A stretch of 64,000 bases of DNA from a virus (lineage: Duplodnaviria > Caudoviricetes): positions 2,718 to 66,717 of the IMG/VR virus record IMGVR_UViG_2523533545_000002; one strand, given 5' to 3'. Made by a program: the position numbers and the translations under genes. The notes below the pieces were generated by a model. That model was not told the origin of the DNA and made no database searches. It saw only the letters and a program-made list of their open reading frames with translations. Within the stretch, counting starts at the first letter, position 1; the number at the start of each line of letters is the position of its first letter. This document shows positions 15,893-60,893 of this stretch, piece after piece.

Positions 15893-15956
15893 AGGTTCAA
15901 TATCGCATGCGCTTGCATGTACTTTCAGTTCCGACATAATATGTACTGACAGTTCA
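15885..15956. promoter_or_regulatory. OR operators (three 15-bp sites) between cI and cro
   Basis: TGAACCATAGGTTCA 15885-99, TGTACTTTCAGTTCC 15918-32, TGTACTGACAGTTCA 15942-56. Confidence 0.75.
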
Positions 15957-25167: not shown

Positions 25168-26455
25168 CGTGCCTCAGGCCAAGTTCCTCCAGATGGAGAA
25201 CAAGTTCCGCGGTTTCGTAGCGGGCTTCGGCTCTGGCAAGACCTGGGTAGGCTGCGCGGGCATCTGCAAGCACGTTTGGGAGTGGCCCCGGATCAACTCC
25301 GGCTACTTCGCCCCGACTTACCCGCAGATCCGCGACATCTTCTTCCCGACGATCGAGGAGGTTGCCTTCGACTGGGGCCTGAGGGTCAAGACGAAGGAGA
25401 GCGACAAAGAGGTCGAGTTCTATAGCGGCGGCCAGTACCGCAGCACGACCATCTGCCGCTCGATGGAGAAGCCCCAGACCATCGTTGGCTTCAAGATCGG
25501 GCACGCCTTGGTCGACGAGCTCGATGTTATGCCCGCGATGAAGGCTGAGCATGCCTGGCGCAAGATCATTGCCCGGATGCGCTACAACATGCCGGGCCTG
25601 AAGAACGGCGTTGACGTGACCACCACCCCCGAGGGGTTCAAGTTCGTCTATCAGCAGTTCGTGAAGCAGCTGCGCGAGAAGCCGGCGCTGAAAGACATGT
25701 ATGGCCTGGTCCAGGCGAGCACGTTCGACAACGAGCTGAACCTGCCGACCGACTACATCCCGTCCCTGATGGAGTCATACCCGGCACAGCTGATCCTGGC
25801 TTACCTGAATGGCCAGTTCGTAAACCTCAACGCGGGTTCGATCTACCACGCCTATGACCGCAAGCTGAATACCTGCTTCGACTCAGTCGAGGCGGGAGAG
25901 CCGCTGTTCATCGGCATGGACTTTAACGTCGGTAAGATGGCGGCAATCACGCACGTCAAGCGCAGTGACGGCAAGCCCAGGGCGGTGGATGAGCTGATCG
26001 ACGGCTTCGATACCCCGGACATGATCCGGCGCATCAAAGAGCGCTACTGGCGGCACAACGGCAAGGACTACGAGAAGACCTGCGAGATCAGGATCTACCC
26101 GGATGCCTCTGGTGGTTCGCGCAAGTCTGTCAATGCCAGTGAGACGGACATCGCCATCCTGCGCCAGGCCGGCTTCGCTGTGATCGCGCCAGACGCCAAC
26201 CCGCCAGTGAAAGACCGCATCAACGCCATGAACGCGATGTTCTGCAACGCGAATGGAGAGCGTCGCTATCTGATCAACCCGCTGCGCTGCCCGACCTACG
26301 CGGATGGACTAGAGCAGCAGGTGTGGGCAGCCAACGGCGAGCCTGACAAGAAGTCGGGTGTCGACCACGCGAACGATGCGGGCGGCTACTTCATCCACCA
26401 CGACTACCCGATCAGCAGGCCGGTCACTCACGTTCCAATCTCGTTCACTTTCTGA
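25154..26455 (+). CDS. terL: Terminase large subunit
   Basis: AGFGSGKT Walker A, LVDE Walker B, GMDFN nuclease motif, DHANDA. Confidence 0.93.
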   Translation: MPTLNVPQAKFLQMENKFRGFVAGFGSGKTWVGCAGICKHVWEWPRINSGYFAPTYPQIRDIFFPTIEEVAFDWGLRVKTKESDKEVEFYSGGQYRSTTICRSMEKPQTIVGFKIGHALVDELDVMPAMKAEHAWRKIIARMRYNMPGLKNGVDVTTTPEGFKFVYQQFVKQLREKPALKDMYGLVQASTFDNELNLPTDYIPSLMESYPAQLILAYLNGQFVNLNAGSIYHAYDRKLNTCFDSVEAGEPLFIGMDFNVGKMAAITHVKRSDGKPRAVDELIDGFDTPDMIRRIKERYWRHNGKDYEKTCEIRIYPDASGGSRKSVNASETDIAILRQAGFAVIAPDANPPVKDRINAMNAMFCNANGERRYLINPLRCPTYADGLEQQVWAANGEPDKKSGVDHANDAGGYFIHHDYPISRPVTHVPISFTF

Positions 26456-29743: not shown

Positions 29744-30721
29744 ATGTCCCTGTCGCAAATGCAGGTTTTCAACGAATACATCATGCCGGCGACCATCGAA
29801 ACGCTGGACCAGATGCTCGTTGCGTTCAACGCCGCCAGCCGCGGCGCAATCGTGCTGTCCCCGGACGGCTTCACCGGCGACTTCCTGCAGGAGTCTTTCT
29901 TCCAGACCCTGGCCGCCGCCCAGCGCCGCGTAGATCGCTACGCTGCCAACGGCGCCGCGCCGATCACCGACCTGACCGAGCTGAAGAACAGCTCGGTTAA
30001 AGTCGCCGGCGGCTTCGGCCCGGTGCGCTACGAGCCATCCCAGATGACCTGGCTGGAGCGTCCCACCGCCCAGGGCATCGAAGTTGCTTCGCGCGCCTTC
30101 GCTGAGATCCTGCTGAAGGATCAGCTGAACACTGCTATCGCCGCTCTGGTGGCTGCGATCACCGCCCAGGCCGCAGCAGTAAACGACGTGTCCGCCACTG
30201 CCGGTATTACCTATGCCGGCCTGAACAACGCCCACGCGAAGTTCGGTGATGCCAGCCAGAACCTGATCACCCAGGTAATGCAGGGCACCACCTACCACAA
30301 GCTGATCGGTCAGAACCTGGCTAACCAGCAGCAGCTGTTCCAGGCGGGCAACGTCCGAGTGATCGACATTCTCGGCAAGGTGTCGGTGGTCACCGATGCT
30401 CCTGCTCTGATGCAGGCGGGTGTCGATCCGGCGCCGGACAAGGAAATCATCCTTTCCCTGGTCCAGGGTGCAGCTCTGGTGCATGACGGTCGCGACATGA
30501 TCAGCAACGTCGACACCACCAACGGCAAAGAGCGCATCGAAACCACGCTGCAGGTTGATTACACCTTCGGCCTGGGCCTGAAGGGCTACACCTGGGACAC
30601 CGTCGCTGGCGGCAAGTCCCCGACCGATGCCGAGCTGGCGACCGGCACCAACTGGGACAAGACCGCCACCAGCATCAAGCACACCGCTGGTACGGCCCTG
30701 ATCGGCGACGCCTCCAAGTAA
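29744..30721 (+). CDS. Major capsid protein
   Basis: 325 aa, strongly biased codon usage, position after the scaffold gene. Confidence 0.88.
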   Translation: MSLSQMQVFNEYIMPATIETLDQMLVAFNAASRGAIVLSPDGFTGDFLQESFFQTLAAAQRRVDRYAANGAAPITDLTELKNSSVKVAGGFGPVRYEPSQMTWLERPTAQGIEVASRAFAEILLKDQLNTAIAALVAAITAQAAAVNDVSATAGITYAGLNNAHAKFGDASQNLITQVMQGTTYHKLIGQNLANQQQLFQAGNVRVIDILGKVSVVTDAPALMQAGVDPAPDKEIILSLVQGAALVHDGRDMISNVDTTNGKERIETTLQVDYTFGLGLKGYTWDTVAGGKSPTDAELATGTNWDKTATSIKHTAGTALIGDASK

Positions 30722-36051: not shown

Positions 36052-38985
36052 ATGGCGCAGGAATCCCGCCTCGCGGTAACGATCGACTCGCGCGGCGCCA
36101 AGCGCAATGCGGATGACCTGACCGACTCGCTCGGACGGATGGAGAAGGCTGGGGATGCGGCAGCAGCATCGGCCGAAGGGGTTTCGGAAAGCCTGGACGA
36201 CCAGCGCAAAGCCCTTACCCAGCTGCTTGGGCAGATCAATCCGACCACCGCTGCCCTTGGCCGTCTGGACGACATGCAGGAGAAGCTGGCAAAGTTCAAA
36301 AAGGCAGGCATTGTCGAAAGCGACACGTTCGTCGAATACACCCAGCGCATTAACACCATGCGCGATGCTCTGGGTGAAACCAGCACCGGCATGAACAAGG
36401 CCGGAATGTCGGCCAAGGCCTACCAGGCATCCTTGCGTGGCCTTCCTGCCCAGTTCACCGATATTGCCGTCAGCCTTCAGGCCGGGCAGGCCCCATTGAC
36501 CGTATTCCTGCAGCAGGGCGGTCAGCTCAAGGATATGTTCGGTGGTGTAGGGCCGGCCGCGCGCGCCATGGGTGGCTACATCCTTGGATTGGTGAACCCG
36601 TTTTCCGTTGCCGCGGCAGCCGCCGCTACTCTGGCGCTGGCCTACTACCAGGGCTCAGAGGAATCGGAGCGCTTCGCCAATGCGTTGATCGAGAACGGCA
36701 ACGCCGCCGGCACCAGTGCAGGCCAGTTGGCAGACCTTGCCAATGAAGTGGCCAGCACCAGCGGCACGGTTGGCGCTGCAGCGGCTGTGCTCACCAAGCT
36801 GGCAGCCGCAGGCAACCCGCTGACCTCAATGTACGCGGAGATCACCCAGGCCTCGCTGGCCTGGTCGAAGCAAACCGGTCGAGACATCGATGGGGTCGTG
36901 AAGTCGTTCAACGACATCGCGAAAAGCCCGGTCGAGGCAATCAAGAAGCTCGACGCTGAGCTGAACATTCTGACCACCTCGCAGTACGCCAACATCGTTT
37001 CCCTGCAGGAGCAGGGCGACACCATGGGGGCGGCGCAGGTGGCCGCAGGGCTGTACGCCGAGGAGATCAGCAGTCGAGCCATAGAGATCGAGGGAAACCT
37101 CGGCACCCTAGAGTCTGCCTGGCAGTCAGTAGCCGGGTTCGCCAAGAAAGCCTGGGATGCGATGCTCGACGTTGGTCGCGACAAATCCCTCGAACAACAG
37201 CTTGCGGACGTAGAGCGCAAGATTGCGGATGCCGAGAAAGGCATTCAGCAGGGCGGCCGTGCAGCCTTTGGTCTCGGGATCACCTCAAAGAGCATCGTTC
37301 AACTGCGTCAACAGGCTGCCGATCTGCAATCAGCCATTGCCGAGGCCGGTCGAAAAGCTTCTGAGGATGCTGCCAGCAAGGCGATTCAAGATGCTGGAAA
37401 AAAAGGCGTCGACACGATCAACGCCACCTTCAAGGCGGCTCAGACCCAAACCGAGAAGCTTCAGAAGCAGCTGAAGGACATCGACAAGGCCCGCGCAGAT
37501 GCGCAGAAGGCCGGCGGGTTCACTGCTGAGGAAGAAGCCAAGTACGCGGTAGCCAGAAAGAACGTCGAGCAACAAATCGCCGACATCAAAGAGCGTGAGG
37601 CGAAGAAGAACAAGCCCAAGGCGGCCACCGGCCAGAATCGCGGCGTGTCCGAGGCTGAAAACACCTTCGCCAAGCTCTACAACCAGTACGATCCGGCAGC
37701 CCAGGCAGCGCGTGCGCTGGTCAAGGAGCAGGGTCAGCTCCAGCTGGTGCTGGACAAGGGCAAAATCAGCCAGGAGGAGTACAACAAGGCCCTGGCCCAG
37801 GCTTCGATCAACTACGGCGCTGCCATCAAAGGCGCTCAAGGCCTGACGCAAGCTGAGCAGTACCGCGCTCAGTTGGAGAAGCAGCTCAGCACCCAGCGGA
37901 CGCAGTACAGCCTGGAGGCTCAAGGCGTGGGCATGGGTGACTTGCAGTCAACCCGTCTGCAGCAGCGTGTGCAGTTGGAGCAGCAGACCAACGACCGCAT
38001 CCTCCAGCTGCGTACTGAGCTCGCCAATGCCACCACGGAGAAGCAGCGGCAGGACCTGCAAACGCAGATCGACCTGACCAACGAGTTTCTACCGAGACAG
38101 CTGGAAGCATTGCAGGCTGGCTGGGCGCAGATGGACCAGGCCATGCTCAACCCTATCAACGGGTGGACGGCGGCAGTCCAAAACTTCGGCAACGAAGCGC
38201 GCGACATCGCCGGACAGACGCAGTCGATCTTCTCCAGTTCGTTCAACACCATAGCGAATGACATCACCAGCGCGATCAAGAGCGGCAGCTTGTCGTTCAA
38301 GACGCTTGGGGATATCGGCGCTGACGTGCTCGACCAGGTGATCACCGGATTTATCCGGATGGGCGTGCAGATGGCGATGAACGCCGCGCTGAGCGCGACA
38401 CTCGGAGCTTCGGCAGCAGCGACCAACATTGCCCTGGCTGGGACAACCGCTTCCGCCTGGGCGCCTGCGGCCGCGATGGCCTCCCTTGCCACGCTTGGCA
38501 CCAACGCCGTCCCCGCTGCTACTGCTTTGACTTCCACCACAGCGCTGGCTGCCGGTCTCGCAGTGGTCCCTGGTTTCGCCACTGGGGGTTACGTGTCCGG
38601 GGCTGGTACTGGCACCTCTGACAGCATCACGGCCAGGCTGAGCGACGGTGAGTTCGTGGTTAACGCCCAGGCCACCAAGCGTAACCGTTCGCTGCTAGAG
38701 GCTATCAATTCGAACGAGCGGGTATCGGTGGCCAGTCAAGGGGCATCCGTGGCGGTTGCGCAGCGGGGAAGTCAGGGCGGCACCCAGGCCACTCAGGTTA
38801 TCCACCAGGTAACCATCGAGAACTACAGCCAAAGCCAAATCGAAACCCGGACTGACTCTGACGGCCGATTGCGGGTGATCGTCCAGGCTGCGGTTGACGA
38901 GATTTCTGGCCAGCTTGCTTCTGGGTACGGCCAGGTCGTGGATGCCGGCGAAGGCGCATATGGCTGGAAAAGACAGGGCTCCTAA
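36052..38985 (+). CDS. Tape measure protein
   Basis: 977 aa, A/Q/K-rich; lambda-H-like PAQFTDIAVSLQAGQAPLTVFLQQGGQLKDMFGG. Confidence 0.93.
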   Translation: MAQESRLAVTIDSRGAKRNADDLTDSLGRMEKAGDAAAASAEGVSESLDDQRKALTQLLGQINPTTAALGRLDDMQEKLAKFKKAGIVESDTFVEYTQRINTMRDALGETSTGMNKAGMSAKAYQASLRGLPAQFTDIAVSLQAGQAPLTVFLQQGGQLKDMFGGVGPAARAMGGYILGLVNPFSVAAAAAATLALAYYQGSEESERFANALIENGNAAGTSAGQLADLANEVASTSGTVGAAAAVLTKLAAAGNPLTSMYAEITQASLAWSKQTGRDIDGVVKSFNDIAKSPVEAIKKLDAELNILTTSQYANIVSLQEQGDTMGAAQVAAGLYAEEISSRAIEIEGNLGTLESAWQSVAGFAKKAWDAMLDVGRDKSLEQQLADVERKIADAEKGIQQGGRAAFGLGITSKSIVQLRQQAADLQSAIAEAGRKASEDAASKAIQDAGKKGVDTINATFKAAQTQTEKLQKQLKDIDKARADAQKAGGFTAEEEAKYAVARKNVEQQIADIKEREAKKNKPKAATGQNRGVSEAENTFAKLYNQYDPAAQAARALVKEQGQLQLVLDKGKISQEEYNKALAQASINYGAAIKGAQGLTQAEQYRAQLEKQLSTQRTQYSLEAQGVGMGDLQSTRLQQRVQLEQQTNDRILQLRTELANATTEKQRQDLQTQIDLTNEFLPRQLEALQAGWAQMDQAMLNPINGWTAAVQNFGNEARDIAGQTQSIFSSSFNTIANDITSAIKSGSLSFKTLGDIGADVLDQVITGFIRMGVQMAMNAALSATLGASAAATNIALAGTTASAWAPAAAMASLATLGTNAVPAATALTSTTALAAGLAVVPGFATGGYVSGAGTGTSDSITARLSDGEFVVNAQATKRNRSLLEAINSNERVSVASQGASVAVAQRGSQGGTQATQVIHQVTIENYSQSQIETRTDSDGRLRVIVQAAVDEISGQLASGYGQVVDAGEGAYGWKRQGS

Positions 38986-39928: not shown

Positions 39929-40333
39929 ATGATCGAGAAATTCATGCGCGCCCCGTATCGCGAGGGTGCAAGGGGTCCTATTGCCTTCGATTGCTGGGGG
40001 CTGTGCCGGGCGGTCCGGCATGACCTTTTCGGGCTGGACTGGCTGCCTTCGCTGGGCGCGGTGGGAAAGGACAAGATCCGCGAGAACACCAAGGCTTACC
40101 GCGACCTCAGAAAGTCGATGGAGGAGTGCGCGCCAGAGCCTGGCGCGATCGCTGCGGTACTGCGCGGAAAGGCGCTGCTGCATGTTGGCACAGTGCTGTT
40201 GAGCGAAGGTCGCCTGAAGGTGATCGACACAAATCCCGGTGGCGCCTGCCTCCGGACAACCGGCGAGTTCGAAGCCGCTAACCCAAGGGTGGTTTACTAC
40301 CGTGATCGAGTTCTATCCGAACAAGCTGAGTGA
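39929..40333 (+). CDS. NlpC/P60 tail-tip assembly protein (lambda K-like)
   Basis: FDCWGLCRAV...LHVGTV. Confidence 0.82.
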   Translation: MIEKFMRAPYREGARGPIAFDCWGLCRAVRHDLFGLDWLPSLGAVGKDKIRENTKAYRDLRKSMEECAPEPGAIAAVLRGKALLHVGTVLLSEGRLKVIDTNPGGACLRTTGEFEAANPRVVYYRDRVLSEQAE

Positions 40334-43300
40334 CACCGCGCCCCTGGGCACCTGGAAGACCGATCGCCGGATGACCATCGAGGAATGGCTGAAGTCCCAA
40401 GCCACGTCCTACGAACGTCGCGAGAGCCCGCCCATCAGCGCCGTGCTGAACGACGAAGTGATAGAGCAAACCAACTGGCACAAGGTCGCCTTCAAGCCTT
40501 CCGACCTGCTTCAGATCTACCGAGAGCCGAAGGGTACCGACCCGTTCTCCATTACCTTCGCCCTGTTCAAAGGCGCCAAGGCGGTGCTCAAGGCGATCAT
40601 GCCCAAGATGCCGGGCATGCCGTCCAGTGCCGGCACCCAGCAGGGTGACCCGCTGATGGATGCCAGCGCTAAGGGTAACAAGGTCAAACTGGGTGATCCG
40701 GTGCGGCAGATCGCCGGCCACCAGAGAACCTATCCGTCTTACCTGGCTCAGCCGCGCCGCGCTTTTTTGGCTCCGCGCGACCAGCGCGTTGAAATGCTTC
40801 TCTATGTCGGTGAGGGTGAGTACGACATCCCTCTGTCCAAGGTAAAGGTCGGTGAAACGCCTTTGATTTCCCTGGGTGCGGACGCAACCTTCACCATCTA
40901 CCCACCAGGTGCTGACCTGTCAGCTGATCCGGCGCACATCAACTGGTTCAACGCGCCAGAGGTTGGGGCCAGCTCCAGTGGTTCTGCAGGCCTTGAGCTG
41001 ACCATGGCCACCGAGCTGACCCGGGCCGCCACAGCCTCGGCGTACCAGTTTGTCGGTGACACGATCAGCATTCCGGTTGGATCGGGCCAGTTCCCGGCCG
41101 ACTGGTCGAATGGCATCATCATCCGTGTGCTTTCGCCTTACAGCTATGAGGTTGTTGACGGCGGCGCCGGGCGCGACATCATCCGCGGCCCGCTTGAAAT
41201 GCTGAGCCCGTCTCCGGGCATGCTCATTGAGGTGGCCGGGTCGAACGCTGGGATGTACGTGGTGCACAGCTTCACTCCGGCGGTACCGGCTGTGCCAGCA
41301 GATCCTGGCTCAGCATCCACACTGACCGGCTCTGCTGCACCGACGCGATACGATTTCAACGTCACGCCTCTCGGGTTCACTCTTTCGCATGCGGGATCGA
41401 CCTACCCGCTGACGCTGAGCACCGCCACAACTGACCTGGCCGGCCTGGTTTCGGCACTGAACGTGCAGCTCACTGGCGTACCGATCCAGGCCCAGCAATC
41501 ATCGGGTGTGGTCCGATTTGTAGAGCTCACCCCTTTCTTCGGCATGCCTATATCGGCATCTGGCGCTTCGACGGTGCTGGGGTCGGCTCCGGTTGGTGTG
41601 ACTGGGACGGCTACGACCGGAGGCACGCCAGCGCAACCGGCGGAGATGACGCTTGATTACGACGGTGGATCACCCGTGGTAGGCCTGGCTATTGGCCAAG
41701 GTCTGGCCACTATCGGTCCGCGCGGCTTGCGCTACCGGATCACGGCCTACAGCGCGAGCCTGTTAGCTGTTGAGCGTCTGAGCTCGTCAGGTTCAACCGA
41801 CGCGGGCTGGCCTGGCTTCAACAGCATGCAGACCGTAAATGGCTTGATCACACTGGACGCATCCAATCTGCAGGGTGGTTACCGAGGTCCAATTGCCTGT
41901 TGCCCAGAAGGCGAGAAGATCACGGAGATTGAGTGGTCTGTCACTTATGCCAATGGCCTGGCTGGCATCGGTCGAGAGGGCCAGATTTACGAGATCCCGA
42001 CCTACTACGTCTTCGAGTACCGCGACATGGATGTAGCTGGGGCCTGGATCGTAATCGAAAAGATGAACGTGGGCGGTTCACTGGATGCCCAGGGCTTCAC
42101 GGAAAGGGTGGTGCTGCCTTACCCGATGCGTGCCGAGGCCAGGATTCGCAAGCAGTACGTCGACCGGCCGGGCCGAATCAACGACGAAGCTCGAGACGAC
42201 GCGACATGGACCGACCTGCGCGGCCGGATGCAGAGCTCGCCAACCAGCTATACCGGCTTGACGGTTATGACCTGCAACATTCGTGGCGGTGATCGGCTGT
42301 CAGCGCAGTCGGAGAGCCAGGTCAGCGCCGAGGCCACACGAATCCTGCCGCTCATGGAAGGGGGCAAAGGTCCCACCAGAGACATCGTGCCCTGGTGTAT
42401 CTACCAACTGAAGCAGCGCGGTTACACCGATGACGATTTGGACTTGCCCGAATGGCAGGCCTTTCACAACGTCTGCGTTTCCCGCGGCGACACCTACGAC
42501 GAGACGCTGGACGCGACGATCACGGTCAAGGACATGATCAACAACGCCCTGGCTTGCGGGTTCGGTGAGTTGGTGGTGTTCCGGGGCCTGTTGCGTCCGG
42601 TGCGTGATGCCGCTCGGGCCGCGTTCGACGTGAGTTACGGCCCGAAGACGCAGACGTACTCGCCGCAGAACATGACCAAGATGCTGAAGATCAGCGGCGC
42701 GATGCCGTCGATCAACGACTTCGACGGCGTGGACATGGAGTACTTCTCCCGCGAGACATGGGCCTGGGAAACGGTCGAGTGCCGCTGGCCGGGCGACCTG
42801 GGCACCAAGGTCGAGAAGATCAAGATGCCAGGGTTCAGCGACAAGACCAGGGCCTGGCGGTTCGGCATGCGCCGGCGCGGGCATCAGAAGTTCCGCACCG
42901 ACGTTTACACCTGGGAAACCGAGATGGACGGCAGCAACAGCGGATACCTGAGTTTTGCAGCCGTTGCCGATGACGCCCCCAAGCGTTGCCAGAGCGCGAT
43001 CCTTCTGGACTTTGCAGTCACCGGCTCGGGGGCGCTTTTGAGCTCTTCAGAGCCGCTGGACTTCAGCGCCGGGGGCGAGCACTTGATCGGCGTGCGCAAG
43101 CTGGATGGCACGCTGTCGGGCCCATTCACCGCTACGCAAGTCGATCAGTACACCGTCAGAGTTGACGCGCTCGACTTCACGCCGGAAGTCGACGGCCCGC
43201 TGGAGCCGCCGCACATCCTGTTCGGCCCGAGCACCCGCTGGGCCTATCCGACGCTGATCACTAGCTCTGACCCAGCCAACGGCAACGTCGCCATGAAGGG

Positions 43301-43355
43301 CATGCCCTACGACGCCCGCGTTTACACCTACGACGACCAATTCCCGCCGGCCTGA
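40302..43355 (+). CDS. Tail tip / central tail protein (lambda I+J-like)
   Basis: About 1017 aa from GTG at 40302; GDPVRQIAG, LRPVRD, DGVDMEY; last phage gene before the satellite. Confidence 0.85.
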   Translation: MIEFYPNKLSDTAPLGTWKTDRRMTIEEWLKSQATSYERRESPPISAVLNDEVIEQTNWHKVAFKPSDLLQIYREPKGTDPFSITFALFKGAKAVLKAIMPKMPGMPSSAGTQQGDPLMDASAKGNKVKLGDPVRQIAGHQRTYPSYLAQPRRAFLAPRDQRVEMLLYVGEGEYDIPLSKVKVGETPLISLGADATFTIYPPGADLSADPAHINWFNAPEVGASSSGSAGLELTMATELTRAATASAYQFVGDTISIPVGSGQFPADWSNGIIIRVLSPYSYEVVDGGAGRDIIRGPLEMLSPSPGMLIEVAGSNAGMYVVHSFTPAVPAVPADPGSASTLTGSAAPTRYDFNVTPLGFTLSHAGSTYPLTLSTATTDLAGLVSALNVQLTGVPIQAQQSSGVVRFVELTPFFGMPISASGASTVLGSAPVGVTGTATTGGTPAQPAEMTLDYDGGSPVVGLAIGQGLATIGPRGLRYRITAYSASLLAVERLSSSGSTDAGWPGFNSMQTVNGLITLDASNLQGGYRGPIACCPEGEKITEIEWSVTYANGLAGIGREGQIYEIPTYYVFEYRDMDVAGAWIVIEKMNVGGSLDAQGFTERVVLPYPMRAEARIRKQYVDRPGRINDEARDDATWTDLRGRMQSSPTSYTGLTVMTCNIRGGDRLSAQSESQVSAEATRILPLMEGGKGPTRDIVPWCIYQLKQRGYTDDDLDLPEWQAFHNVCVSRGDTYDETLDATITVKDMINNALACGFGELVVFRGLLRPVRDAARAAFDVSYGPKTQTYSPQNMTKMLKISGAMPSINDFDGVDMEYFSRETWAWETVECRWPGDLGTKVEKIKMPGFSDKTRAWRFGMRRRGHQKFRTDVYTWETEMDGSNSGYLSFAAVADDAPKRCQSAILLDFAVTGSGALLSSSEPLDFSAGGEHLIGVRKLDGTLSGPFTATQVDQYTVRVDALDFTPEVDGPLEPPHILFGPSTRWAYPTLITSSDPANGNVAMKGMPYDARVYTYDDQFPPA

Positions 43356-43374
43356 CCGGACCTTATCGAGCATG

Positions 43375-43389
43375 CCCGCCTTGTGCGGG
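43375..43389 (+). repeat. Satellite att core (left copy) CCCGCCTTGTGCGGG
   Basis: Identical to 55919-55933; 20 bp after the tail-tip stop codon. Confidence 0.9.
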
Positions 43390-43445
43390 TTTTTGTTTAA
43401 CGTAACTATATGTTTTATATGAATTAAAATTATGCATATGGCGTT

Positions 43446-43467
43446 AGCCCCACACTGAGCCCCACAC
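43446..43467 (+). repeat. Arm-type integrase binding sites AGCCCCACAC x2
   Basis: 43446-55 and 43458-67; the same tandem occurs at 55783-55803. Confidence 0.8.
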
Positions 43468-43989
43468 GGATTGCTTGCGTGAAGGGCTGATGGTTTGCAA
43501 GCAGGTGGCAGTGCCCACCTAACTGCACGCCAGCCACCAAGCTGTACCGTGTAACTGCCCCGCAGGCATGCTGTAGCGGCCCTGTTGGCCGCGCAGGTGG
43601 CTACCCCCAACCTTTTTGCGGCGCTTAGGGCCCTAGCCCCACGCGGCCATCCATAGCCCCAAGTGCCCCCCCCCCCCGTAAAGTAAAATACGGTGGGGTG
43701 CTGTGCAGGTCTGTAAGCATCCACGAAAAATTTGTGTTTCTAAGGTGCATGGTGCTACGCCGCTTCCTTCCTGCGAAATTGCAATCCACTTGCTCATCCA
43801 TTTGCATTCAACCTGATCAGTCATTTTCATCTGACCACTGGTCACGTCGGGAATTGTTCCCTGACGCGCCACGTATAACAGCCATGCTATAAAATGGCTT
43901 TCGCCGACTGGCAGTAAATTAAGCTTTGTGCATAGATGAACGTCGGCAGCTACAGGGAATGACAAGTTATTTTGGCGTTGGGGTAGTTA

Positions 43990-51230: not shown

Positions 51231-51390
51231 GCGTTACATACCCCCTTATAGGGGGGTATGTGTAACGTAACGCACCAGCGTTACAGGTTGCGTTACAGCT
51301 GTAACGCCCGTGCTAGGGCGGCTGGTGCGGGATTGCGTTACATGCTGCGTTACGGTAACGCAAAAAGGGTTTGTAACGCAGTTTGTAACG
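51231..51390. repeat. Iteron cluster / putative satellite replication origin
   Basis: Eleven GTAACG/CGTTAC hexamers in both orientations plus the CATACCCCC/GGGGGTATG palindrome, at the 3' end of the primase-helicase gene. Confidence 0.8.
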
Positions 51391-51402: not shown

Positions 51403-53445
51403 CTAAAACTTAGGTTTATTACTCGGCCGAGGGCGGTACTCATCCCCTTGGAGCTGGTCCACCTGCCCCCCATCAATCAAGCGTTTAGCTACACTCCTGT
51501 AGCTCTTGATGTCTGCGGCTTTCATGGCGTCATACCACGTAGACTGCTTGATTCGAGCTCGGTCACCACCAGCCTCATCATAGAGCTTTATCAGTATGGC
51601 CAGCGCCTTGTCCCCCTCTCTGTACGAGGCCTTCTCCCCAGCAGCCTGAATGTCCTCTGGGGCGCAAAACTCAATTACCAACGATGTGTTTTCAGCACCA
51701 TCTTCGTTGTATATGCCTAACGGTACCTGCACGGCCTTGAAGTGGAAGCTAAACGGCTCACCGTCCTTCATCTTGCCAGTAGGGCCGTACGTGGTCGCGT
51801 CAACAACCTTCTCTAGTCCTACGCCTATACTGCTTAGTGCCCAAACAAAGTCTGTGTCGTTGTAGAAGTTACTCGCGCCACGCGCGCCCTTGCTGGTTTC
51901 CTTCCCGCTGTGGTGAACAATAAGCGTTGACGCCCCACAGGCTTGACCGCAAAGACGAACGCCCCGCAAACACCTCCCAACGTCGGAGGGGTTGTTTTCA
52001 TCAACACCGCCATTCAGCGCAGCAAAGGTATCGAACATCACCAGTACCGGCTGTAGAGGGGCTAACTGCGCCCCGAGTGCTTTCATGCAACCGTCATCCG
52101 CCAAGTCCACACCAGTGAAGACAATTTCCAAATTGTCGCCAAACGCACCGAGTTTTTTCACCTGCGCCTTCAGGCGGCGAGATATTCCTCCTTGCCCTTC
52201 GCCACATACGTAAACCACTGGCCCGATGCGCCGTACCTTCATAGTGCCAAACGCCTGCCCCGTGCAAATGCTGTGGGCTACACGCAGTGCTAAGAACGAC
52301 TTATAGCTACCAGATGGACCAAACATCAGCCCGTGAGAGTCTGCCTCTAATACGCCATCGATCAGGTAGGTTGCTGGCTTGCAGCTTGCTGCTAGCTCAT
52401 CCCCTTTGAGGAGGGTAAATCTGGTCATGCACTTAGCTGCTGACACACACCTTCTAACAGCATCTGCCCCTTCATGCTGGTGCAAGTCGTTAAAGTCGTC
52501 GCCCGGTTTATTGCAGAACACCGGCACAGCCAGAAGTGCGCGAGCCTCCCTAGCGGCCTTAACTGCGTCTGGGTGCGGCCCGCTACCGTCCTTGAGTAAA
52601 TCAGCCCCAACAACAATCTCAACATTTGGCCAGTGCTTCCGCAGAGCCTTGGCGACATTAAGGAGGTTAGTGCAACTCAACGCGCAGAATACGGGCAAAC
52701 CGGTAGCTTCTAGCACGCTGAGCCCTGTAGCCACCCCTTCTACAATTACCAGCCGCTCATTGACATCTCCCGCCCCCAGCTTTACGAACCCGCCAGTGCG
52801 GGTGCCATGTCCCGGCAATGACGCTTTTCGTCCCTCCCGGTCAATCAGCTCCACGCTGCTCAGCACCAACTTGCCCCCCACCAACTTGTGGATGGGCGCC
52901 AGTAGTAACTCACCTGTTAGCGGCTCGCCACCTGAGTTGGGGGTGTACCCCAACATCCCCTCAGCCGTTGTGGCGCTAACTCCGTGCAGGCCGGCAGCAG
53001 CCACCTGTTTACGCTCCAAGTATGGAATGGCCATTGGTGCTCCAGCGGCCACCAGTCGAGCAGCCAGCTGCGCCGCCTTGGCTTGCTCGTAGTCGATAGC
53101 TTCCTGCTGAGTCTTGCGCTCGGCCCGACGCAGTAGATCCGCCTTGCTGACGCTGTCCCAACCTCCAATATCGATCCACCCGCTCTTACGGGCAATGTGG
53201 AACAGCGTTGCAATGCCAACACCCCCAGACCCAATGCTGCGCCAAGTGCTGGCGAAATCCTTTTCGTTGTAGCTCGCACCCTTTGCGCTCCATTCCTCGC
53301 AGATGTCCCGACCGTCCTCGCCTAACTCGGACTTAACAGCCGCACAGACCTTGAACCACTCACTACGGTCGCAGTCGGGATCAATGCTAGCTAGCGCTGC
53401 CTTGATTTTTTCCATTGGTACTGCGGTGTGCTCGAAAGAGGTCAT
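51403..53445 (-). CDS. Primase-helicase (PriCT-2 + TOPRIM + AAA_25/RepA-like)
   Basis: IDPDCDRSEWFKV...WS, IVEGVATGLS...GAD...DFNDLH, GPSGSYKS Walker A, FDT, IVHHSGK. Confidence 0.9.
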   Translation of the reverse strand: MTSFEHTAVPMEKIKAALASIDPDCDRSEWFKVCAAVKSELGEDGRDICEEWSAKGASYNEKDFASTWRSIGSGGVGIATLFHIARKSGWIDIGGWDSVSKADLLRRAERKTQQEAIDYEQAKAAQLAARLVAAGAPMAIPYLERKQVAAAGLHGVSATTAEGMLGYTPNSGGEPLTGELLLAPIHKLVGGKLVLSSVELIDREGRKASLPGHGTRTGGFVKLGAGDVNERLVIVEGVATGLSVLEATGLPVFCALSCTNLLNVAKALRKHWPNVEIVVGADLLKDGSGPHPDAVKAAREARALLAVPVFCNKPGDDFNDLHQHEGADAVRRCVSAAKCMTRFTLLKGDELAASCKPATYLIDGVLEADSHGLMFGPSGSYKSFLALRVAHSICTGQAFGTMKVRRIGPVVYVCGEGQGGISRRLKAQVKKLGAFGDNLEIVFTGVDLADDGCMKALGAQLAPLQPVLVMFDTFAALNGGVDENNPSDVGRCLRGVRLCGQACGASTLIVHHSGKETSKGARGASNFYNDTDFVWALSSIGVGLEKVVDATTYGPTGKMKDGEPFSFHFKAVQVPLGIYNEDGAENTSLVIEFCAPEDIQAAGEKASYREGDKALAILIKLYDEAGGDRARIKQSTWYDAMKAADIKSYRSVAKRLIDGGQVDQLQGDEYRPRPSNKPKF

Positions 53446-53561
53446 ACACCACCCCACCTGGGCACGGGGGCACGCCGCATAGCCACTCGCTGATCAAGAT
53501 AATGGTCAAGCGAGCCAGCCATGGCAGCCGGTTCTGCCTTGTTTATCGAAAGCTTTTCCAT
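53442..53561 (-). CDS. Small hypothetical protein between alpA and the primase gene
   Basis: 39 aa, overlaps the primase start; GGAG upstream. Confidence 0.35.
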   Translation of the reverse strand: MEKLSINKAEPAAMAGSLDHYLDQRVAMRRAPVPRWGGV

Positions 53562-53681: not shown

Positions 53682-53885
53682 TTATTGGGGTTGATCAAGC
53701 TGAGTATTTACCCAGGACTCCACCATCTGGCTGTCCCAGCCGACGGCGCGCAGACCTGCAATTGGCTTCCCCTTGGGGAACTTGCCCTCGGCCATCAATT
53801 CGTAAATTTTAGTGCGACTAAGACCCATAACTTTTTGTAGGTCATGGATGCGTAAAATTGTGCGAGGGAGTGGAGTGGTGTTCAT
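53682..53885 (-). CDS. alpA: AlpA-family regulator / excisionase
   Basis: ILRIHDLQKVMGLSRTKIYELMAEGKFPK...VGWDSQMVESWV. Confidence 0.9.
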   Translation of the reverse strand: MNTTPLPRTILRIHDLQKVMGLSRTKIYELMAEGKFPKGKPIAGLRAVGWDSQMVESWVNTQLDQPQ

Positions 53886-53986
53886 GTTTGGTTGCCCCAA
53901 GTATGGCCACGGGCTGCGGCGTACAGGGCATATGCTGTGCGGTACGGCGGGTTTCAAAAATTACCCAGCCGTGCCGGTAAAGGGGT

Positions 53987-54535
53987 TTACCGTAACGCTT
54001 TGGGGGTTTTAGGAGAGCGGCCTGGATTACTGGCATAGGCTGGCGCAACGGGTTTTATCCACTTTTTGATCCGTTCAAGTGAAGGTAAATCTTCGCGGCC
54101 TTCGCGTTTCAGCACGTCCTTAACTAATCCCGCCATATCCTTAAGTCGAAACTCCTGATCGGTGTCGGCTTGCCATACTTCGGAAGCAAGTGTTCTGGCG
54201 CGATCCTGTACTGTCGCCTTGGCGGCGTTTACTGGTCCCAAAGAGCGCTGGAAGACTTGTTCTGCCTTCTTTTTGTCTACGATATGCGGCACCACCAGCG
54301 TGGCGCCAAGCTTAAAGAAGCAAACTATTACATTGGTCAGCTGCTCTCGCTGTTCATCCGTCAGCGTCTTCGCCAGTGGCGCTATGGAGTCTAATAGCGC
54401 CATCAACTCTTCTCTTCTACTCGGCTCAGTCGCAGGGTTCTCTTCCAAATAAGCCAAGCCCACAAGCAAGCCATATGGCCCCACGAGACCCTTGGTGTCA
54501 GGGAAGTATGCTTTCAATGCTTCAAGCGCATTCAC
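53987..54535 (-). CDS. Hypothetical protein coupled to the integrase, with C-terminal HTH-like segment
   Basis: ATGA overlap with int; LPSLERIKKWIKPVAP. Confidence 0.7.
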   Translation of the reverse strand: MNALEALKAYFPDTKGLVGPYGLLVGLAYLEENPATEPSRREELMALLDSIAPLAKTLTDEQREQLTNVIVCFFKLGATLVVPHIVDKKKAEQVFQRSLGPVNAAKATVQDRARTLASEVWQADTDQEFRLKDMAGLVKDVLKREGREDLPSLERIKKWIKPVAPAYASNPGRSPKTPKALR

Positions 54536-55776
54536 GCTCCACCCCTCCCGAATGTGCCATGCACTACGTTCACCGCTGGCGCGGTAGTGGCGTAGTCAGC
54601 CCATGCTTGCATCAGCTCGCGGCGCTTTTCCAGCAGGTTGCTACGACTGTAGGCGGCCTCTGTCTGGTCGCGTTCATCGTGCGCCAGCGCCAGCTCACAA
54701 ACTTCACGCGGATAGTGGGTGTATTCACTCGCCCATGTGCGGAAGGTGGCGCGGAAGCCGTGGGTAGTTACGTCCGGTAGCCCCATTGTGCGCAGCAGGT
54801 TGAAGGTCGCGCCAATGTGCATGACGCCAGACTTGCTGCCGGTGCCTGGAAACAGATAAGTACTGCCAGCGATGCGCGGGATGGTTCGTAGTAAAGCAAC
54901 TGCTTGTCTTGAAAGTGGAATTGAAAACGGCTGCCGGGTTTTCATGCGTTCGGCAGGTAAGCTCCACGTGGCGGCGTCAAGGTCAAACTCGTCCCAAGTG
55001 GCAAAGCGAACCATTCCAGCGCGAGCGGCAGTCAAAATTAACAATTGCAGCGCATTAGCATCACGCCCCTCCATGGATGCCAGTCTTCCCATGAAAGTCG
55101 GTAGGTCGCGCCAAGCCATCGCTGGATGTTTGGTTTTTTGCCTAGCGCGCTTTTTGTCAGCACGACTTAAAAGGTTGTCCAGGTGGCCACGCCAGCGTGC
55201 AGGATTCTCCCCGGTCCTTAATTTGAGCGTTTTGGCTGCATCCAGCACCCGCTCAATGTGGCCGCGCAACTCATCGGCTGTCGCTGGTTTCGCACTCCAG
55301 ATCGGCTGCAGAGCACGTAGTACATGCTCCGTCTGTACCTGATCAGGTCGCAGCGTGCCCATAGTTGGGAGTGCGTAGCGCTCCATAATTGACAACCAGC
55401 CTTTGCGGCGGCGTTCAGTCAGGTGTTGGCAGTGTGCCGAATGGTAATCCAGCACCAGCGATTTGAAGGTAACGACATTTGCCTTCTCTGCTAGGTGCTG
55501 TTCTTGCTGGCGCTGCTGTTCGGCTCGGCGCTCATCCAAAGGGTCGCAGCCCTTCAGGATCAGGGCCCGTGCTTCAGCGGCGGCCTGTCTTGCTGTTTTG
55601 AGTTTTACCGCTGGATACGGTCCCAAGCCCATATCTCGGCGCTTGCCGTTGAGTTGGTAGCGCAGCAGCCATGACTTGTTGCCCCCGGCCTTGATTACCA
55701 GATAAAGCCCATCACCGTCCGAGTATCTACCCGGCTCGGTTAGGTGCTCGACTTGCTTTGGATTTAGCTCGCTCAT
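54532..55776 (-). CDS. int: P4-like tyrosine integrase (arm-binding domain)
   Basis: YSDGDGLYLVI...W..RY arm domain; TAAR, HGFRATF, LAH, AAYSR catalytic residues. Confidence 0.95.
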   Translation of the reverse strand: MSELNPKQVEHLTEPGRYSDGDGLYLVIKAGGNKSWLLRYQLNGKRRDMGLGPYPAVKLKTARQAAAEARALILKGCDPLDERRAEQQRQQEQHLAEKANVVTFKSLVLDYHSAHCQHLTERRRKGWLSIMERYALPTMGTLRPDQVQTEHVLRALQPIWSAKPATADELRGHIERVLDAAKTLKLRTGENPARWRGHLDNLLSRADKKRARQKTKHPAMAWRDLPTFMGRLASMEGRDANALQLLILTAARAGMVRFATWDEFDLDAATWSLPAERMKTRQPFSIPLSRQAVALLRTIPRIAGSTYLFPGTGSKSGVMHIGATFNLLRTMGLPDVTTHGFRATFRTWASEYTHYPREVCELALAHDERDQTEAAYSRSNLLEKRRELMQAWADYATTAPAVNVVHGTFGRGGA

Positions 55777-55782
55777 TGCAAC

Positions 55783-55803
55783 AGCCCCACACTCAGCCCC
55801 ACA
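55783..55803 (+). repeat. Arm-type integrase binding sites AGCCCCACA(C) x2
   Basis: Same tandem as 43446-43467. Confidence 0.8.
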
Positions 55804-55855: not shown

Positions 55856-55918
55856 CCGTGTAGCCCAGTGTTTGCTGGGGTTGCGCATAATTACGCATTG
55901 CGGCGTACAAATAAAAAA

Positions 55919-55933
55919 CCCGCCTTGTGCGGG
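55919..55933 (+). repeat. Satellite att core (right copy) CCCGCCTTGTGCGGG
   Basis: Identical to 43375-43389; 22 bp before the tail-spike ATG. Confidence 0.9.
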
Positions 55934-55955
55934 CTTTTTCATGCCCGGAGAAAAT

Positions 55956-57776
55956 ATGCGATACAACACCGGAAACCCAGTTGAACCCGATGGCTCTAGT
56001 AGTCCGTTCGACTTGTTCGACAACGCCGGAAATATCGACTTGGCTGCTAACGGTGATGATCCCAACTGGATTGACCGGAAAGGGCGAGCGCGCAAGTCTC
56101 TGAAGGGCATGGAGATTGATTTCCAGAATTTCCTTCTGGCTTCTGGTTACGAATACATCGGCGACTATGACACTGATTCGCCTCTGACCATCCGGCGAGC
56201 GAACCAGGTCTTTTCGAAAGACGGTGAGTACTGGAGGTCAGGCCCATCGCTTAGCCTGCCATTCACTACGACGGGCTCATGGGCTGCTGACGGACCATTG
56301 TTTGTAACAGTCGGCGATGCAGTCCTTCGGCAAACCCTTGCATCCGGTGTCGGCGGTTCAATGATCGGCATTACTGCCGGCTATGAAGGGGCTGAGCCTA
56401 GAGACCTGCAGGCCAAGCTGAACGAAATGCTCAGCGTTGAGGATTTAGGCGCGAAGCCCGCCCCGTTCGATTCAACCCTGGCCTTCGCCAAGGCACTAGC
56501 AACCGGGCGCAGCTTCCAATGCGAAGGCAGCCATTACTACGTAGGCATCACGATTGCTCCCACAGCCGACGGCCAGATGATTTCTGGTAACGGCAAGATG
56601 GGGCAAACGGTAATCGAGAACCCGTACAATTCTAATCCGCTTTACCAGTCCTCAGTTGGCCCAGGCGCTGCGTACAAGCGCCGAATTGGAGTTCGGGATA
56701 TCGAGTTTGTCGGAAACCCAACGACTTTGGGTGGCATGTTGCTGCGCGGGATCATCAGTGATGGCCTGACTGGCGATGCCGACAAGTCGTGCGAGTTCAG
56801 GAACATTAAAGTGCGCGATGTCGGGGCGGGCCCTGCGCTGACCGTTAATGCCTGGTGCAACAACCTGTACAGCATCGAGCTTTGGGACAACTATCAGGGT
56901 CTGAAGCTCGGAGCAGAGGCCAATGCGTTTGGCGCCTATGGTCTGTACATCACCGGTTGCCAGAAAGAGGCAATCGTTCTGCCGCAGGGATCTGGGCAGC
57001 CTTCGGTCATCAACTTCTACAACACCACCTGCCAGTATTCGGGTGGGGATGAGTACATGATCGATATCCGCGATGGATACGCGATCAAGTTCTATGGCCT
57101 TTACCTGGAGGGCAGCCGCGCCCCGCTTGGTCCGATCAACGTCGGCGGCCAGGCAGCTATGGTTGGTTTCGACAACGTCATGCACAACTTGGTTGACGGG
57201 GTTCCAAGCGTCCCGATCATCACCACCAACGTGAAGCACTGCCACGTCAAGGGCATCGTCAACCTAGGTGGCGCAATGGCTTCCTTCGTGAAGATCACCG
57301 GCACCCTGCCTTTCACCCACGTCGAGGGCTATCACGTTGCCGTTGGCTCGGTTGCTACACCCGTGGATGACCAGTCAACCCGCCGTTCGACCATCGTCCA
57401 GAACTGGGATGGTAGCGAGTTCGGCATGACCACCTTCAAGAACCTGGCGGCCCAGCACCTAACAGAATGGAGAACCACCGAGGCCAACACACTCATCATG
57501 TACGTAGACGGAGGTGGCCGGCTGGTGTTCGGCCCGGACGCAACTGCACCAACGCTTTCTAGAGCGGGCGGAACGATGTCGCTCACTTACAGCGCGGGCA
57601 TCGGCACGTTCAGGGCGCCACGATTCGGCATTGGGGCGGACAAGTTGATACTTGATGTTCCCTCGTCACCGGAAGGGGCCTTCGCAGCTCCGCCGGGCTC
57701 CCTTGCCATGTCCAGCAATGGCAAGCAGTACACAAAAGATAACGGCGTCGGCAACATAGGGTGGCTGCAGATATGA
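55956..57776 (+). CDS. Tail spike / putative polysaccharide depolymerase
   Basis: Conserved MRYNTGNPV...GDAVLRQTL virion-anchor N-terminus, then SVEDLGAK..DST.AF and a beta-helix-like G/N/I-rich body. Confidence 0.82.
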   Translation: MRYNTGNPVEPDGSSSPFDLFDNAGNIDLAANGDDPNWIDRKGRARKSLKGMEIDFQNFLLASGYEYIGDYDTDSPLTIRRANQVFSKDGEYWRSGPSLSLPFTTTGSWAADGPLFVTVGDAVLRQTLASGVGGSMIGITAGYEGAEPRDLQAKLNEMLSVEDLGAKPAPFDSTLAFAKALATGRSFQCEGSHYYVGITIAPTADGQMISGNGKMGQTVIENPYNSNPLYQSSVGPGAAYKRRIGVRDIEFVGNPTTLGGMLLRGIISDGLTGDADKSCEFRNIKVRDVGAGPALTVNAWCNNLYSIELWDNYQGLKLGAEANAFGAYGLYITGCQKEAIVLPQGSGQPSVINFYNTTCQYSGGDEYMIDIRDGYAIKFYGLYLEGSRAPLGPINVGGQAAMVGFDNVMHNLVDGVPSVPIITTNVKHCHVKGIVNLGGAMASFVKITGTLPFTHVEGYHVAVGSVATPVDDQSTRRSTIVQNWDGSEFGMTTFKNLAAQHLTEWRTTEANTLIMYVDGGGRLVFGPDATAPTLSRAGGTMSLTYSAGIGTFRAPRFGIGADKLILDVPSSPEGAFAAPPGSLAMSSNGKQYTKDNGVGNIGWLQI

Positions 57777-58163: not shown

Positions 58164-58379
58164 ATGCCTTACATCGTCATCAACACCAGCAACCACTACG
58201 ATCCCGCCAACCAGATCCATCACGCGACCGAGGAAGCCGCCGACCAGGCAGCGCGGGATCTGCTGGCTGCTCAACCAGCGGTAATCGTACATACGGCCAA
58301 AGTGCTCAAGCGCTACACCGCCGAGGTGACGGTGACTGTCGATGAGCCTGAGTCGGTCGAACCGATGGAGGAAGCCTGA
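58164..58379 (+). CDS. Small phage hypothetical protein
   Basis: GGAG RBS; coupled to the endolysin gene. Confidence 0.55.
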   Translation: MPYIVINTSNHYDPANQIHHATEEAADQAARDLLAAQPAVIVHTAKVLKRYTAEVTVTVDEPESVEPMEEA

Positions 58380-58999
58380 TGCCCATTACCGAGCAGCAGT
58401 TGCTGCAGATCCTTCCTAATGCCCGCCCAGTCGCGGGTATTTTTTTGCCTGCGATAAACCGGGCGATGGCCCGCTTCAAGATCGACAGCCGGGTGCGCCA
58501 GGCGGCGTTCCTGGCCCAGATCGGTCATGAGTCGGGCCACCTGCGCAACCTGGTGGAGAACCTGAACTACAGCGCCGAGGCTCTCATGCGTACCTGGACG
58601 ACCCGGTTCAATGCTGCCCTGGCCAAGGAATATGCCCGCCAGCCGGAGCGCATCGCCAATGTCGTGTACAACGCACGCATGGGCAACATCCACCCGGGCG
58701 ATGGCTGGCGCTTCCGCGGGCGTGGCCTGATTCAGCTCACCGGGCGGGCGAACTATGCAGCCGCCGGTGCCGGGCTAGGCCTGCCGCTGGAGGATCAACC
58801 ACAATTGCTCGAGCAGCCGGAGCATGCCGCCATGTCTGCCGCCTGGTGGTGGGCGAAGCATGGGCTGAACGAACTGGCCGATGCCGGCCGGTTCCAGGAT
58901 ATCGGCAGCGTGATCAACACTGGCAAGCCCGGCCGGGTGCCGCATGGTGCTGCTGAGCGCAAGGCGCTGTATGACCGAGCGTTGCAGGTGCTGGTATGA
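58379..58999 (+). CDS. Endolysin, glycoside hydrolase family 19
   Basis: AFLAQIGHESG, ENLNYSA, FRGRGLIQLTGRANY. Confidence 0.92.
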   Translation: MPITEQQLLQILPNARPVAGIFLPAINRAMARFKIDSRVRQAAFLAQIGHESGHLRNLVENLNYSAEALMRTWTTRFNAALAKEYARQPERIANVVYNARMGNIHPGDGWRFRGRGLIQLTGRANYAAAGAGLGLPLEDQPQLLEQPEHAAMSAAWWWAKHGLNELADAGRFQDIGSVINTGKPGRVPHGAAERKALYDRALQVLV

Positions 59000-59747: not shown

Positions 59748-60893
59748 ATGTCCGGTAATAATATAAAAAAATATGATTACATAGATGCCCTTCGTGGGGT
59801 CGCGATAGCCCTAGTAGTCCTTGTTCACGCCTCTCAGTACGTCAAACCATTATCTGATGTATTGATGCGAATAATGACCGAGGGAGCAAGAGGTGTTCAG
59901 CTTTTTTACATCGCTAGCGCTATCACACTTTGTATGTCATGGAGCGCACGACGGAAAGATGATCTGAATCCGATCCGTGATTTCTATTTGCGAAGAGTTT
60001 TCAGAATTGCGCCAATGTTCTACTTGGCTATCGCGTTGTTTCTCTTTTTGAATGGTGCGGCGGCGTCATACTTTGCCCCGAATGGTATTAGCTGGTGGTT
60101 CGTGCCTGTGACCGCGTTGTTTTTGCATGGTTTCCACCCTGAAACCATAAACTCGGTCGTTCCAGGAGGTTGGTCAGTAGCAGTTGAGATGACCTTCTAT
60201 CTCGTATTTCCTCTACTAGTTCGTATTGAAAGTTTTAAATATCTTGTTTTACTTCTGTTGCTTTCGCTGTTTCTTCAGAAGGCGAACGCGCCGATTGCAG
60301 GGGTGATTTTTCAGTATGAACCTACTCAGAAATATCTGATCGAAGGTTTTGCCTTCTATAATTTCATTGGTCAATTGCCGGTGTTTGTAATTGGATTGAT
60401 CACATACCGATTTCTTGCCACGACGCGACAAGTTGATGCGAGGCTTGTGGCGTTCGCCTCCGCCGTGTTTTTAGTGCTTGCCTTCGAGTTCTGGAACCCC
60501 CATCAGACTTTTGTTCCAAGTCATGTAGTTGCAGGGGCGATTTTTGCCATTTTTTCGGTGTTTTTAGCCAGGAAACCAATTGCCTTGCTGGTAAATCCAC
60601 TGACGGTGCTGCTTGGGAAGTTGAGCTTTAGCATGTACCTCGTGCATATCGCGATTCTTAAACTGTTGAGCGGGACAAAAATTCCGGCTGCAATGGGTGA
60701 GGGTGATGTGAACAGTGTTTTGTTTTTTTTGTTTGTTCTCGCCGTCACCGCGGTTGTGTCATGGGTAACCTATAACACTATCGAAAAGCCAGGGGTTGCG
60801 ATGGGGCGGAGATTGATTGAAAGGCTGGAAGCTGGGCGTGCAGCCGAACTGTTGGCTACGAGTCCAACGAAGTTGAAAAATAGTAGTCAATAG
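59748..60893 (+). CDS. Acyltransferase-3 (OafA-like) membrane protein
   Basis: IDALRGVAIALVVLVH, GVQLFYIAS, RRVFRIAP, WSVAVEMTFY, SFSMYLVH. Confidence 0.9.
   Translation: MSGNNIKKYDYIDALRGVAIALVVLVHASQYVKPLSDVLMRIMTEGARGVQLFYIASAITLCMSWSARRKDDLNPIRDFYLRRVFRIAPMFYLAIALFLFLNGAAASYFAPNGISWWFVPVTALFLHGFHPETINSVVPGGWSVAVEMTFYLVFPLLVRIESFKYLVLLLLLSLFLQKANAPIAGVIFQYEPTQKYLIEGFAFYNFIGQLPVFVIGLITYRFLATTRQVDARLVAFASAVFLVLAFEFWNPHQTFVPSHVVAGAIFAIFSVFLARKPIALLVNPLTVLLGKLSFSMYLVHIAILKLLSGTKIPAAMGEGDVNSVLFFLFVLAVTAVVSWVTYNTIEKPGVAMGRRLIERLEAGRAAELLATSPTKLKNSSQ

Follow-up and report, generated by a model that had tools for sequence, protein, structure and literature searches.

Terminators are harmless, recurrent landing sites for several kinds of mobile element. 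Tn7 homes to the terminator of glmS, and group IIC introns home to terminators or hairpins. Phage lambda reportedly has secondary attachment sites, which are said to go back to the work of Shimada, Weisberg and Gottesman in 1972 and share only the core with the primary site, in whose absence they are used. Terminator-like sequences have also been found upstream of insertion sequences (PMC13548323). In Tn916, the terminator T1 at one end of the element acts as an insulator that blocks read-through from outside promoters into the element genes (PMC11658703). Integrases, for their part, favour symmetric stem-loops as sublocations within tRNA genes (bioRxiv 10.1101/2020.11.02.365908).

In this work, we analyzed a DNA stretch of 64,000 nucleotides (the window) that is occupied by a lambdoid siphovirus prophage of a Pseudomonas host and in which an island is inserted at a hairpin within the tail gene cluster. 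Like the tRNA-targeting integrases of the P4/lambda type, the integrase of this island has an arm-binding N-terminal domain and a catalytic domain, and its core is dyad-symmetric with a short asymmetric centre; likewise, the element lies between short direct repeats and the function of the target appears to be preserved after insertion. In contrast to those systems, the stem-loop used here is a terminator behind a protein gene (cysS, ppa or the phage tail gene). The terminator as landing site is shared with Tn7, group IIC introns and insertion sequences, but these depend on other enzymes and mechanisms, whereas the present enzyme is an arm-type tyrosine integrase that apparently needs the exact stem and loop. 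As with the secondary sites of lambda, integration at a site sharing only the core appears to have taken place where the primary site is missing, although our case is drawn from comparative genomics and its secondary site lies in a prophage. Finally, a terminator at the element end is also found in Tn916; T1 lies wholly inside that element, whereas here, by analogy, a terminator would be rebuilt at each junction from the shared hairpin and the T-runs of the element, with insulation as the predicted outcome.

Taken together, the results described below point towards secondary-site capture by a terminator-hairpin-specific tyrosine integrase of the lambda/P4 type, an explanation to which, as a whole, we assign a probability of about 0.7. 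The mechanism is ordinary tyrosine-integrase recombination; it is the target class that is unusual for this type of integrase. In the literature consulted, of which the coverage was partial, we found no description of a tyrosine integrase with a terminator-hairpin core, of a cysS-linked Pseudomonas island or of a satellite integrated in a prophage. Islands are usually sought at tRNA genes, and a sizeable clade of terminator-using integrases behind housekeeping genes would escape such searches. The locus is a clean example, with an island in a tail gene cluster, no gene broken and a known empty site, which makes questions of excision, polarity and helper-satellite relations directly testable.

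The insert, its borders and its genes

The features of the prophage and of the insert are the following, in window coordinates:

15140-15937, CI-like repressor gene of the prophage
25139-26455, large terminase gene of the prophage
29744-30721, major head protein gene of the prophage
36052-38985, tape measure gene of the prophage
40239..43355, plus strand, central tail (J-like) protein gene (phrog_469, E 1.7e-254)
43374..43398, plus strand, attL, left half phage-derived and right half element-derived
43375..43389, plus strand, left copy of the 15-bp identity block (crossover region)
43390..43758, no strand assigned, element arm adjoining attL (blastn)
43446..43466, plus strand, candidate arm-type site pair, AGCCCCACA twice (43446/43458) with 12-bp spacing, repeat family D13
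51403..53457, minus strand, primase-helicase gene (PriCT_2, Toprim and AAA_25 domains)
53682..53957, minus strand, gene of an AlpA-like excisionase/regulator (phrog_2790, E 5.5e-8)
54532..55776, minus strand, tyrosine integrase gene, transcribed away from attR
55783..55803, plus strand, candidate arm-type site pair, AGCCCCACA twice (55783/55795) with 12-bp spacing
55909..55939, minus strand, attR, an inward-facing terminator-like site before int, with a stem of 6-11 bp and a U-rich run behind it
55919..55933, plus strand, right copy of the 15-bp identity block
55956..57776, plus strand, tail fibre gene (phrog_34100, phrog_17635; alignment to L027)

The prophage also encodes NinG, and its J-like tail protein has 80 relatives in IMG/VR with 78-89% identity. 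Between the J-like tail gene and the tail fibre gene lies the 12.5-kb insert, of lower and patchy G+C content. No prophage gene is broken by it: the stop codon of the tail gene is 19 nt ahead of the hairpin core, and the fibre gene keeps its start codon and ribosome-binding site intact, 23 nt past the core. No tRNA genes were found in the 64-kb window, and neither the flanks nor the element matched any INPHARED phage record in a megablast comparison. The effect on the phage, if any, would come from the 12.5 kb that now separate the tail gene from the fibre gene. Downstream of the latter are an endolysin-like gene (58379-58999) and an O-antigen acetyltransferase-like moron (59748-60893); as both lie beyond the insert, their expression from upstream phage promoters might change.

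The insert is bounded by the 15-mer CCCGCCTTGTGCGGG, present on the plus strand at 43375-43389 and 55919-55933, and these are exactly the two copies that the 5.7-Mb host genome contains. The empty site is provided by the IMG/VR prophage L027, whose J-like protein is 87% identical and in which GCATG-CCCGCCTTGTGCGGG-CTTTTTCATGCCCGGAG separates the same pair of tail genes; in attL, the similarity of the window to L027 ends exactly where the core has its right edge, and in attR it starts again exactly where the core has its left edge. The initial annotation had joined the outer flanks in silico into the phage site GCCCGC-CTTGT-GCGGGC-TTTTT, a sequence that we recomputed and that has an exact match in L027. 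Its join of the inner flanks, AAAAACCCGC-CTTGT-GCGGGTTTTT with a 10-bp stem, was also reproduced, and the inner flanks of two related elements give the same palindrome of A-run, core and T-run. The two 15-mers might alternatively be taken for ordinary identical terminators rather than recombination junctions, given how common this hairpin class is, but the match of the L027 empty site to the base refutes that reading. With an integrase gene and paired arm motifs just inside the repeats, and with related elements bounded by the same core, its probability is close to nil.

The integrase matches the Pfam families Arm-DNA-bind_3 (PF13356, 5.7e-24), Phage_int_M (PF22022, 1.2e-19) and Phage_integrase (PF00589, 6.5e-9). 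It thus joins the arm-binding N-terminal domain to the core-binding and catalytic domains of the lambda/P4 type, next to direct repeats with a matching empty site. As candidates for the catalytic set (Arg, Lys, His-x-x-Arg, His and Tyr), TAAR, HGFR, LAH and AAY motifs were assigned in its translation by eye and not from an alignment to a solved enzyme. Together with the AlpA-like regulator and the primase module, the integrase gene forms the layout of a satellite in an island of roughly 10-15 kb. Cargo genes are also present in the insert, and several element ORFs have no match in Pfam or PHROGs; in the scan of the larger element ORFs against both databases, no capsid, packaging or redirection/hijacking genes were detected. 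Since capsid and packaging matches are missing, the name of satellite is plausible for this element and no firmer than that.

As for the arms, AGCCCCACA occurs four times in the window against 0.58 copies expected, twice in each arm, and these copies are candidate arm-type sites. The arm at 43390..43758 is conserved at about 85% in the elements of P. putida PSE7 and of the metagenome contig L223, and in Pseudomonas sp. PH1b for the first ~170 bp only (82%). A third, diverged hairpin, CCCCC-TTATA-GGGGG, was observed at 51241-51271 and is followed by TGTGTAACGTAAC, which resembles TGTTTAACGTAAC to the right of attL. It sits at a G+C step within the element, with the cargo on one side and the primase gene on the other, and could represent either a relic junction or a repeat linked to an origin.

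The core as a terminator-type hairpin

The reconstructed phage site (attB) consists of a 6-bp GC stem, a 5-nt loop and five U residues just downstream of the tail gene, that is, the composition of an intrinsic terminator. The 3' flank could be read in 68 related prophages, and 48 of them have CCCGC...GCGGG with a T-run at the same position behind the tail gene. The stems of these 48 hairpins are invariant and their loops amount to 18 different sequences; because the stems never vary, no stem covariation is seen. An invariant stem with a drifting loop fits a terminator or some other constraint at the level of structure, termination itself being a prediction from the sequence. The recombination core had been described from the outset as a terminator-type hairpin, and its stem, loop and U-run after the tail gene, with the structure kept in 48/68 prophages, bear this out. 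The hairpins of the form CCCGC...GCGGG listed elsewhere in the phage are also real (12365, 13403, 36016 and 58126), and we add another at 58422; all five are accompanied by an A- or T-run where a terminator would have it, and the motif has 8 matches compared with 1.3 expected.

Columns 2, 3 and 5 of the loop are the most variable of the region among 17 unique sequences of the same context, several of which differ solely in the loop. The terminator loop was also the most variable intergenic spot in the IMG/VR set L225-L304, where sequences with the same flanks differ only there (CAAGT, CCAGT, CTTGT, CTAGC); the loops of the tail-gene terminator follow C-N-N-G-Y. This variability could be due to neutral drift, to template-switch mutation at a quasi-palindrome or to escape from integrating elements.

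We calculated the hairpin energy and the U-tract score of each of the four sites, strand by strand. For the empty phage site and the two junctions the values are as follows:

attB(+), -10.9 kcal/mol, 6 GC pairs, tail UUUUU, tail score 3.88
attB(-), -8.1 to -11.5 kcal/mol, 5-6 bp, without U-run, tail score 0.45-0.75
attL(+), -9.5 kcal/mol, 5 GC pairs and a G·U pair, tail UUUUGUUU, tail score 4.09
attL(-), -8.1 kcal/mol, 5 bp, without U-run, tail score 0.45
attR(+), -7.5 kcal/mol, 5 bp, tail CUUUUU, tail score 2.33
attR(-), -10.1 to -14.3 kcal/mol, 6-11 bp, U-rich tail, tail score 4.69 (6-bp stem)

According to the initial annotation, nothing but the 5-bp core stem survives at each junction, a statement that is true only for Watson-Crick DNA palindromes, which leave G·U pairs out of account. 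At the RNA level, the stem of attL(+) comprises 6 bp, with a closing G·U pair and UUUUGUUU behind it, and that of attR(-) comprises 6-11 bp and leads into U-rich sequence; on the plus strand of attR just the 5-bp stem and CUUUUU are left. Having retained a stem and UUUUGUUU, attL still looks like the terminator of the tail gene, a consensus scan also calls attL(+) terminator-like, and its predicted efficiency as a terminator is close to that of the empty phage site. Furthermore, since T-runs are present on both sides of the element core, both junctions keep inward-facing terminator-like hairpins, which probably insulate the element.

These predicted structures argue against the proposal that recombination acts as a termination switch, in which integration would weaken the terminators of both junctions and excision would restore both, toggling read-through into the tail fibre gene. 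Such a switch would agree with the strict DNA palindromes, which measure 5 bp at the junctions compared with 6 bp in attB and 10 bp in attP, and with the weaker structure predicted for attR(+) (-7.5 kcal/mol, tail CUUUUU). Nevertheless, the site that the tail-gene transcript meets first is attL(+), with -9.5 vs -10.9 kcal/mol for attB(+) and a better U-tract (4.09 vs 3.88), and because integration leaves this site nearly unchanged a switch is not predicted. Besides, the two neighbours of the core in the excised circle, int (minus strand) and the gene at 43990 (plus strand), both point outward, so that a terminator would have no evident role between them. We consider the switch very improbable.

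Integrase relatives and their targets

The context was read for three close elements, which are called here the three closest; P0001, with a 98% identical integrase, and P0002-P0020 are not among them. P. putida PSE7 carries a 12.57-kb element with a 94% identical integrase directly after cysS, with CCCGCCTTGTGCGGG at both ends and a repeat that extends to 24 bp. The 7.3-kb element of Pseudomonas sp. PH1b (integrase 74% identical) is located between cysS and a convergent gene and has a 26-bp repeat with the same stem and a loop that differs by one base (CTGGT). In the metagenome contig L223, the same element is placed after cysS. Conservation of the element ends amounts to about 85% in PSE7 and L223 and is confined to a short core-adjacent stretch in PH1b; the interior is for the most part not alignable. 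Within each element both junctions have the same loop, which is CTGGT for PH1b and CTTGT for the other three elements. Tyrosine recombinases require identity across the overlap region, as is established for the family. A loop located in the overlap would therefore be expected to match at both junctions, provided that the present enzyme shares this requirement, as we infer.

Integrases with 53-59% identity are encoded in 49 of 400 Pseudomonas species (~12%). For the 29 of these 49 relatives whose flanks were read, int is preceded without exception (29/29), at a distance of 150-210 bp, by a GC hairpin and its A- or T-run, mostly GCCGGC-CACAA-GCCGGC, and a tRNA upstream of int was found in none (0/29). 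They occupy at least five chromosomal contexts, and one group lies directly after ppa. Among distant relatives from other genera (28-42% identity), tRNA-Tyr, tRNA-Phe or tRNA-Met is upstream of int in 8 of 24. The survey of integrase homologues for terminator targeting that had been suggested at the start is thus favorable to the idea, with a hairpin and T-run in 3/3 close relatives and in 29/29 Pseudomonas relatives at 53-59%, and a terminator-hairpin target is shared by the integrase relatives sampled. In five integrase relatives from Pseudomonas species (L191, L192, L203, L205 and L210), the hairpin loop upstream of int is reversed (TTGTG instead of CACAA) and the A-run is on the outer side; either the core is inverted relative to int in this subfamily or the elements are tandem or rearranged.

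Searches with other parts of the element gave few matches. No close relative of the integrase was found in IMG/VR. The pattern of the left end of the element gave nothing in IMG/VR and one true element among the metagenome contigs, and the int-proximal arm pattern was found in the 400 Pseudomonas species only in PH1b, apart from two coincidental coding matches.

We propose that CCCGCCTTGTGCGGG is the crossover core and that intrinsic-terminator hairpins are the natural target class of the integrase. The GC stem arms, lengthened in the element's own site by A/T runs, would be inverted core-type binding sites, and the loop with its closing pair would form an overlap of roughly 7 bp for strand exchange, at a position within the 15-mer that is likewise putative. 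The paired copies of AGCCCCACA on both arms are likely arm-type sites. A wider hypothesis, which we put forward only tentatively and regard as somewhat doubtful, is that a Pseudomonas clade of arm-type integrases (~12% of the sampled species) moved from tRNA stem-loops to terminator hairpins, using the stem as binding site and the loop as overlap, with convergent terminators as a portable target and T-runs that rebuild inward-facing insulators. The target would be portable because terminators of this hairpin class recur convergently at unrelated loci (cysS, ppa and the prophage tail operon). With such a short, convergently recurring structure as attachment site, an island could hop between chromosomal sites and prophages. 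That the hypervariable loops of phage terminators reflect escape from integration would be a bolder extension of the same hypothesis.

Availability of the hairpin and the choice of the prophage

The 22-mer GCCCGCCTTGTGCGGGCTTTTT was counted in more than 112 contigs of IMG/VR, whose flanks are unrelated, and the same stem and T-run with the loop CAAGT in at least 120, also with unrelated flanks, compared with 2 and 0 viral contigs when the stem carries the arbitrary loops GATAC and TGTTC, respectively. Phage terminators of IMG/VR (L003-L114 and L307-L386) strongly favour the loop class C-N-N-G-Y. A special status of the CTTGT loop in itself was ruled out, CAAGT being equally common in viral contigs.

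Beyond phages, CCCGCCTTGTGCGGG was found in 279 of 400 Pseudomonas species, with about 537 matches against about 23 for the reversed control; this tally and that of the 49 species with a related integrase include the genomes G100, G152 and G372, flagged as unpublished, from which no locus reading comes. The 30 sites sampled were always within a longer hairpin, nearly always next to a T-rich run, and none was at cysS (0/30). Conserved phage terminators had been considered a near-neutral, widely available landing pad. The 22-mer and the 15-mer are indeed widespread and no gene is broken by the insertion, but the pad is not specific to phages, as bacterial terminators carry CCCGCCTTGTGCGGG too.

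In the host genome, cysS is followed by a REP-like palindrome and not by this hairpin. Of its 33 CCCGC-N5-GCGGG hairpins, just the two junctions have the CTTGT loop, which leaves the terminator of the prophage as the sole exact target. The usual site of the family would be the terminator behind the chromosomal cysS, which shares 24-26 bp with the element's site, whereas the phage site shares only 15 bp with it. With no such hairpin at cysS and a single exact match in the prophage, the element would have landed there as a secondary site, a designation that rests on three or four related elements because a single phage-embedded instance was found.

The earlier idea of a preference for phage terminators fares poorly, as the closest elements sit behind the chromosomal cysS and an insert at this spot was found in 0 of the 68 related prophages. 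In its adaptive form, the idea is that the satellite chooses the terminators of helper prophages so as to be induced, excised and packaged with the helper. The int-AlpA-primase layout, which is that of P4/PICI-like satellites, the position within a tail gene cluster without a broken gene and the frequency of the 22-mer in viral contigs (>112) would all suit such a strategy. This is outweighed by the chromosomal location of the three closest elements behind cysS, by the 0/68 occupancy with a matching loop in just one of the 48 hairpin-bearing prophages (the L027 contig), by the failure to find a close integrase relative in IMG/VR, by the lack of a capsid, packaging or known hijacking gene among the larger element ORFs scanned and by the presence of CCCGCCTTGTGCGGG in chromosomal terminators of 279/400 Pseudomonas species. 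We consider phage targeting unlikely, even though a position in the late operon of a phage that might act as helper may yet be adaptive. Judging from these sequence comparisons, secondary-site capture, and not a phage-directed strategy, is most likely what placed the element in the prophage.

PSE7 has two further copies of CCCGCCTTGTGCGGG, both unoccupied and one of them with the 22-mer of the phage site, which would fit a preference for the A/T-extended cysS site without proving it. The unoccupied 22-mer of PSE7 (L176, G001:C1 near 4819000) follows the apparent 3' end of a tRNA-like gene, which ends in GCGCCA.
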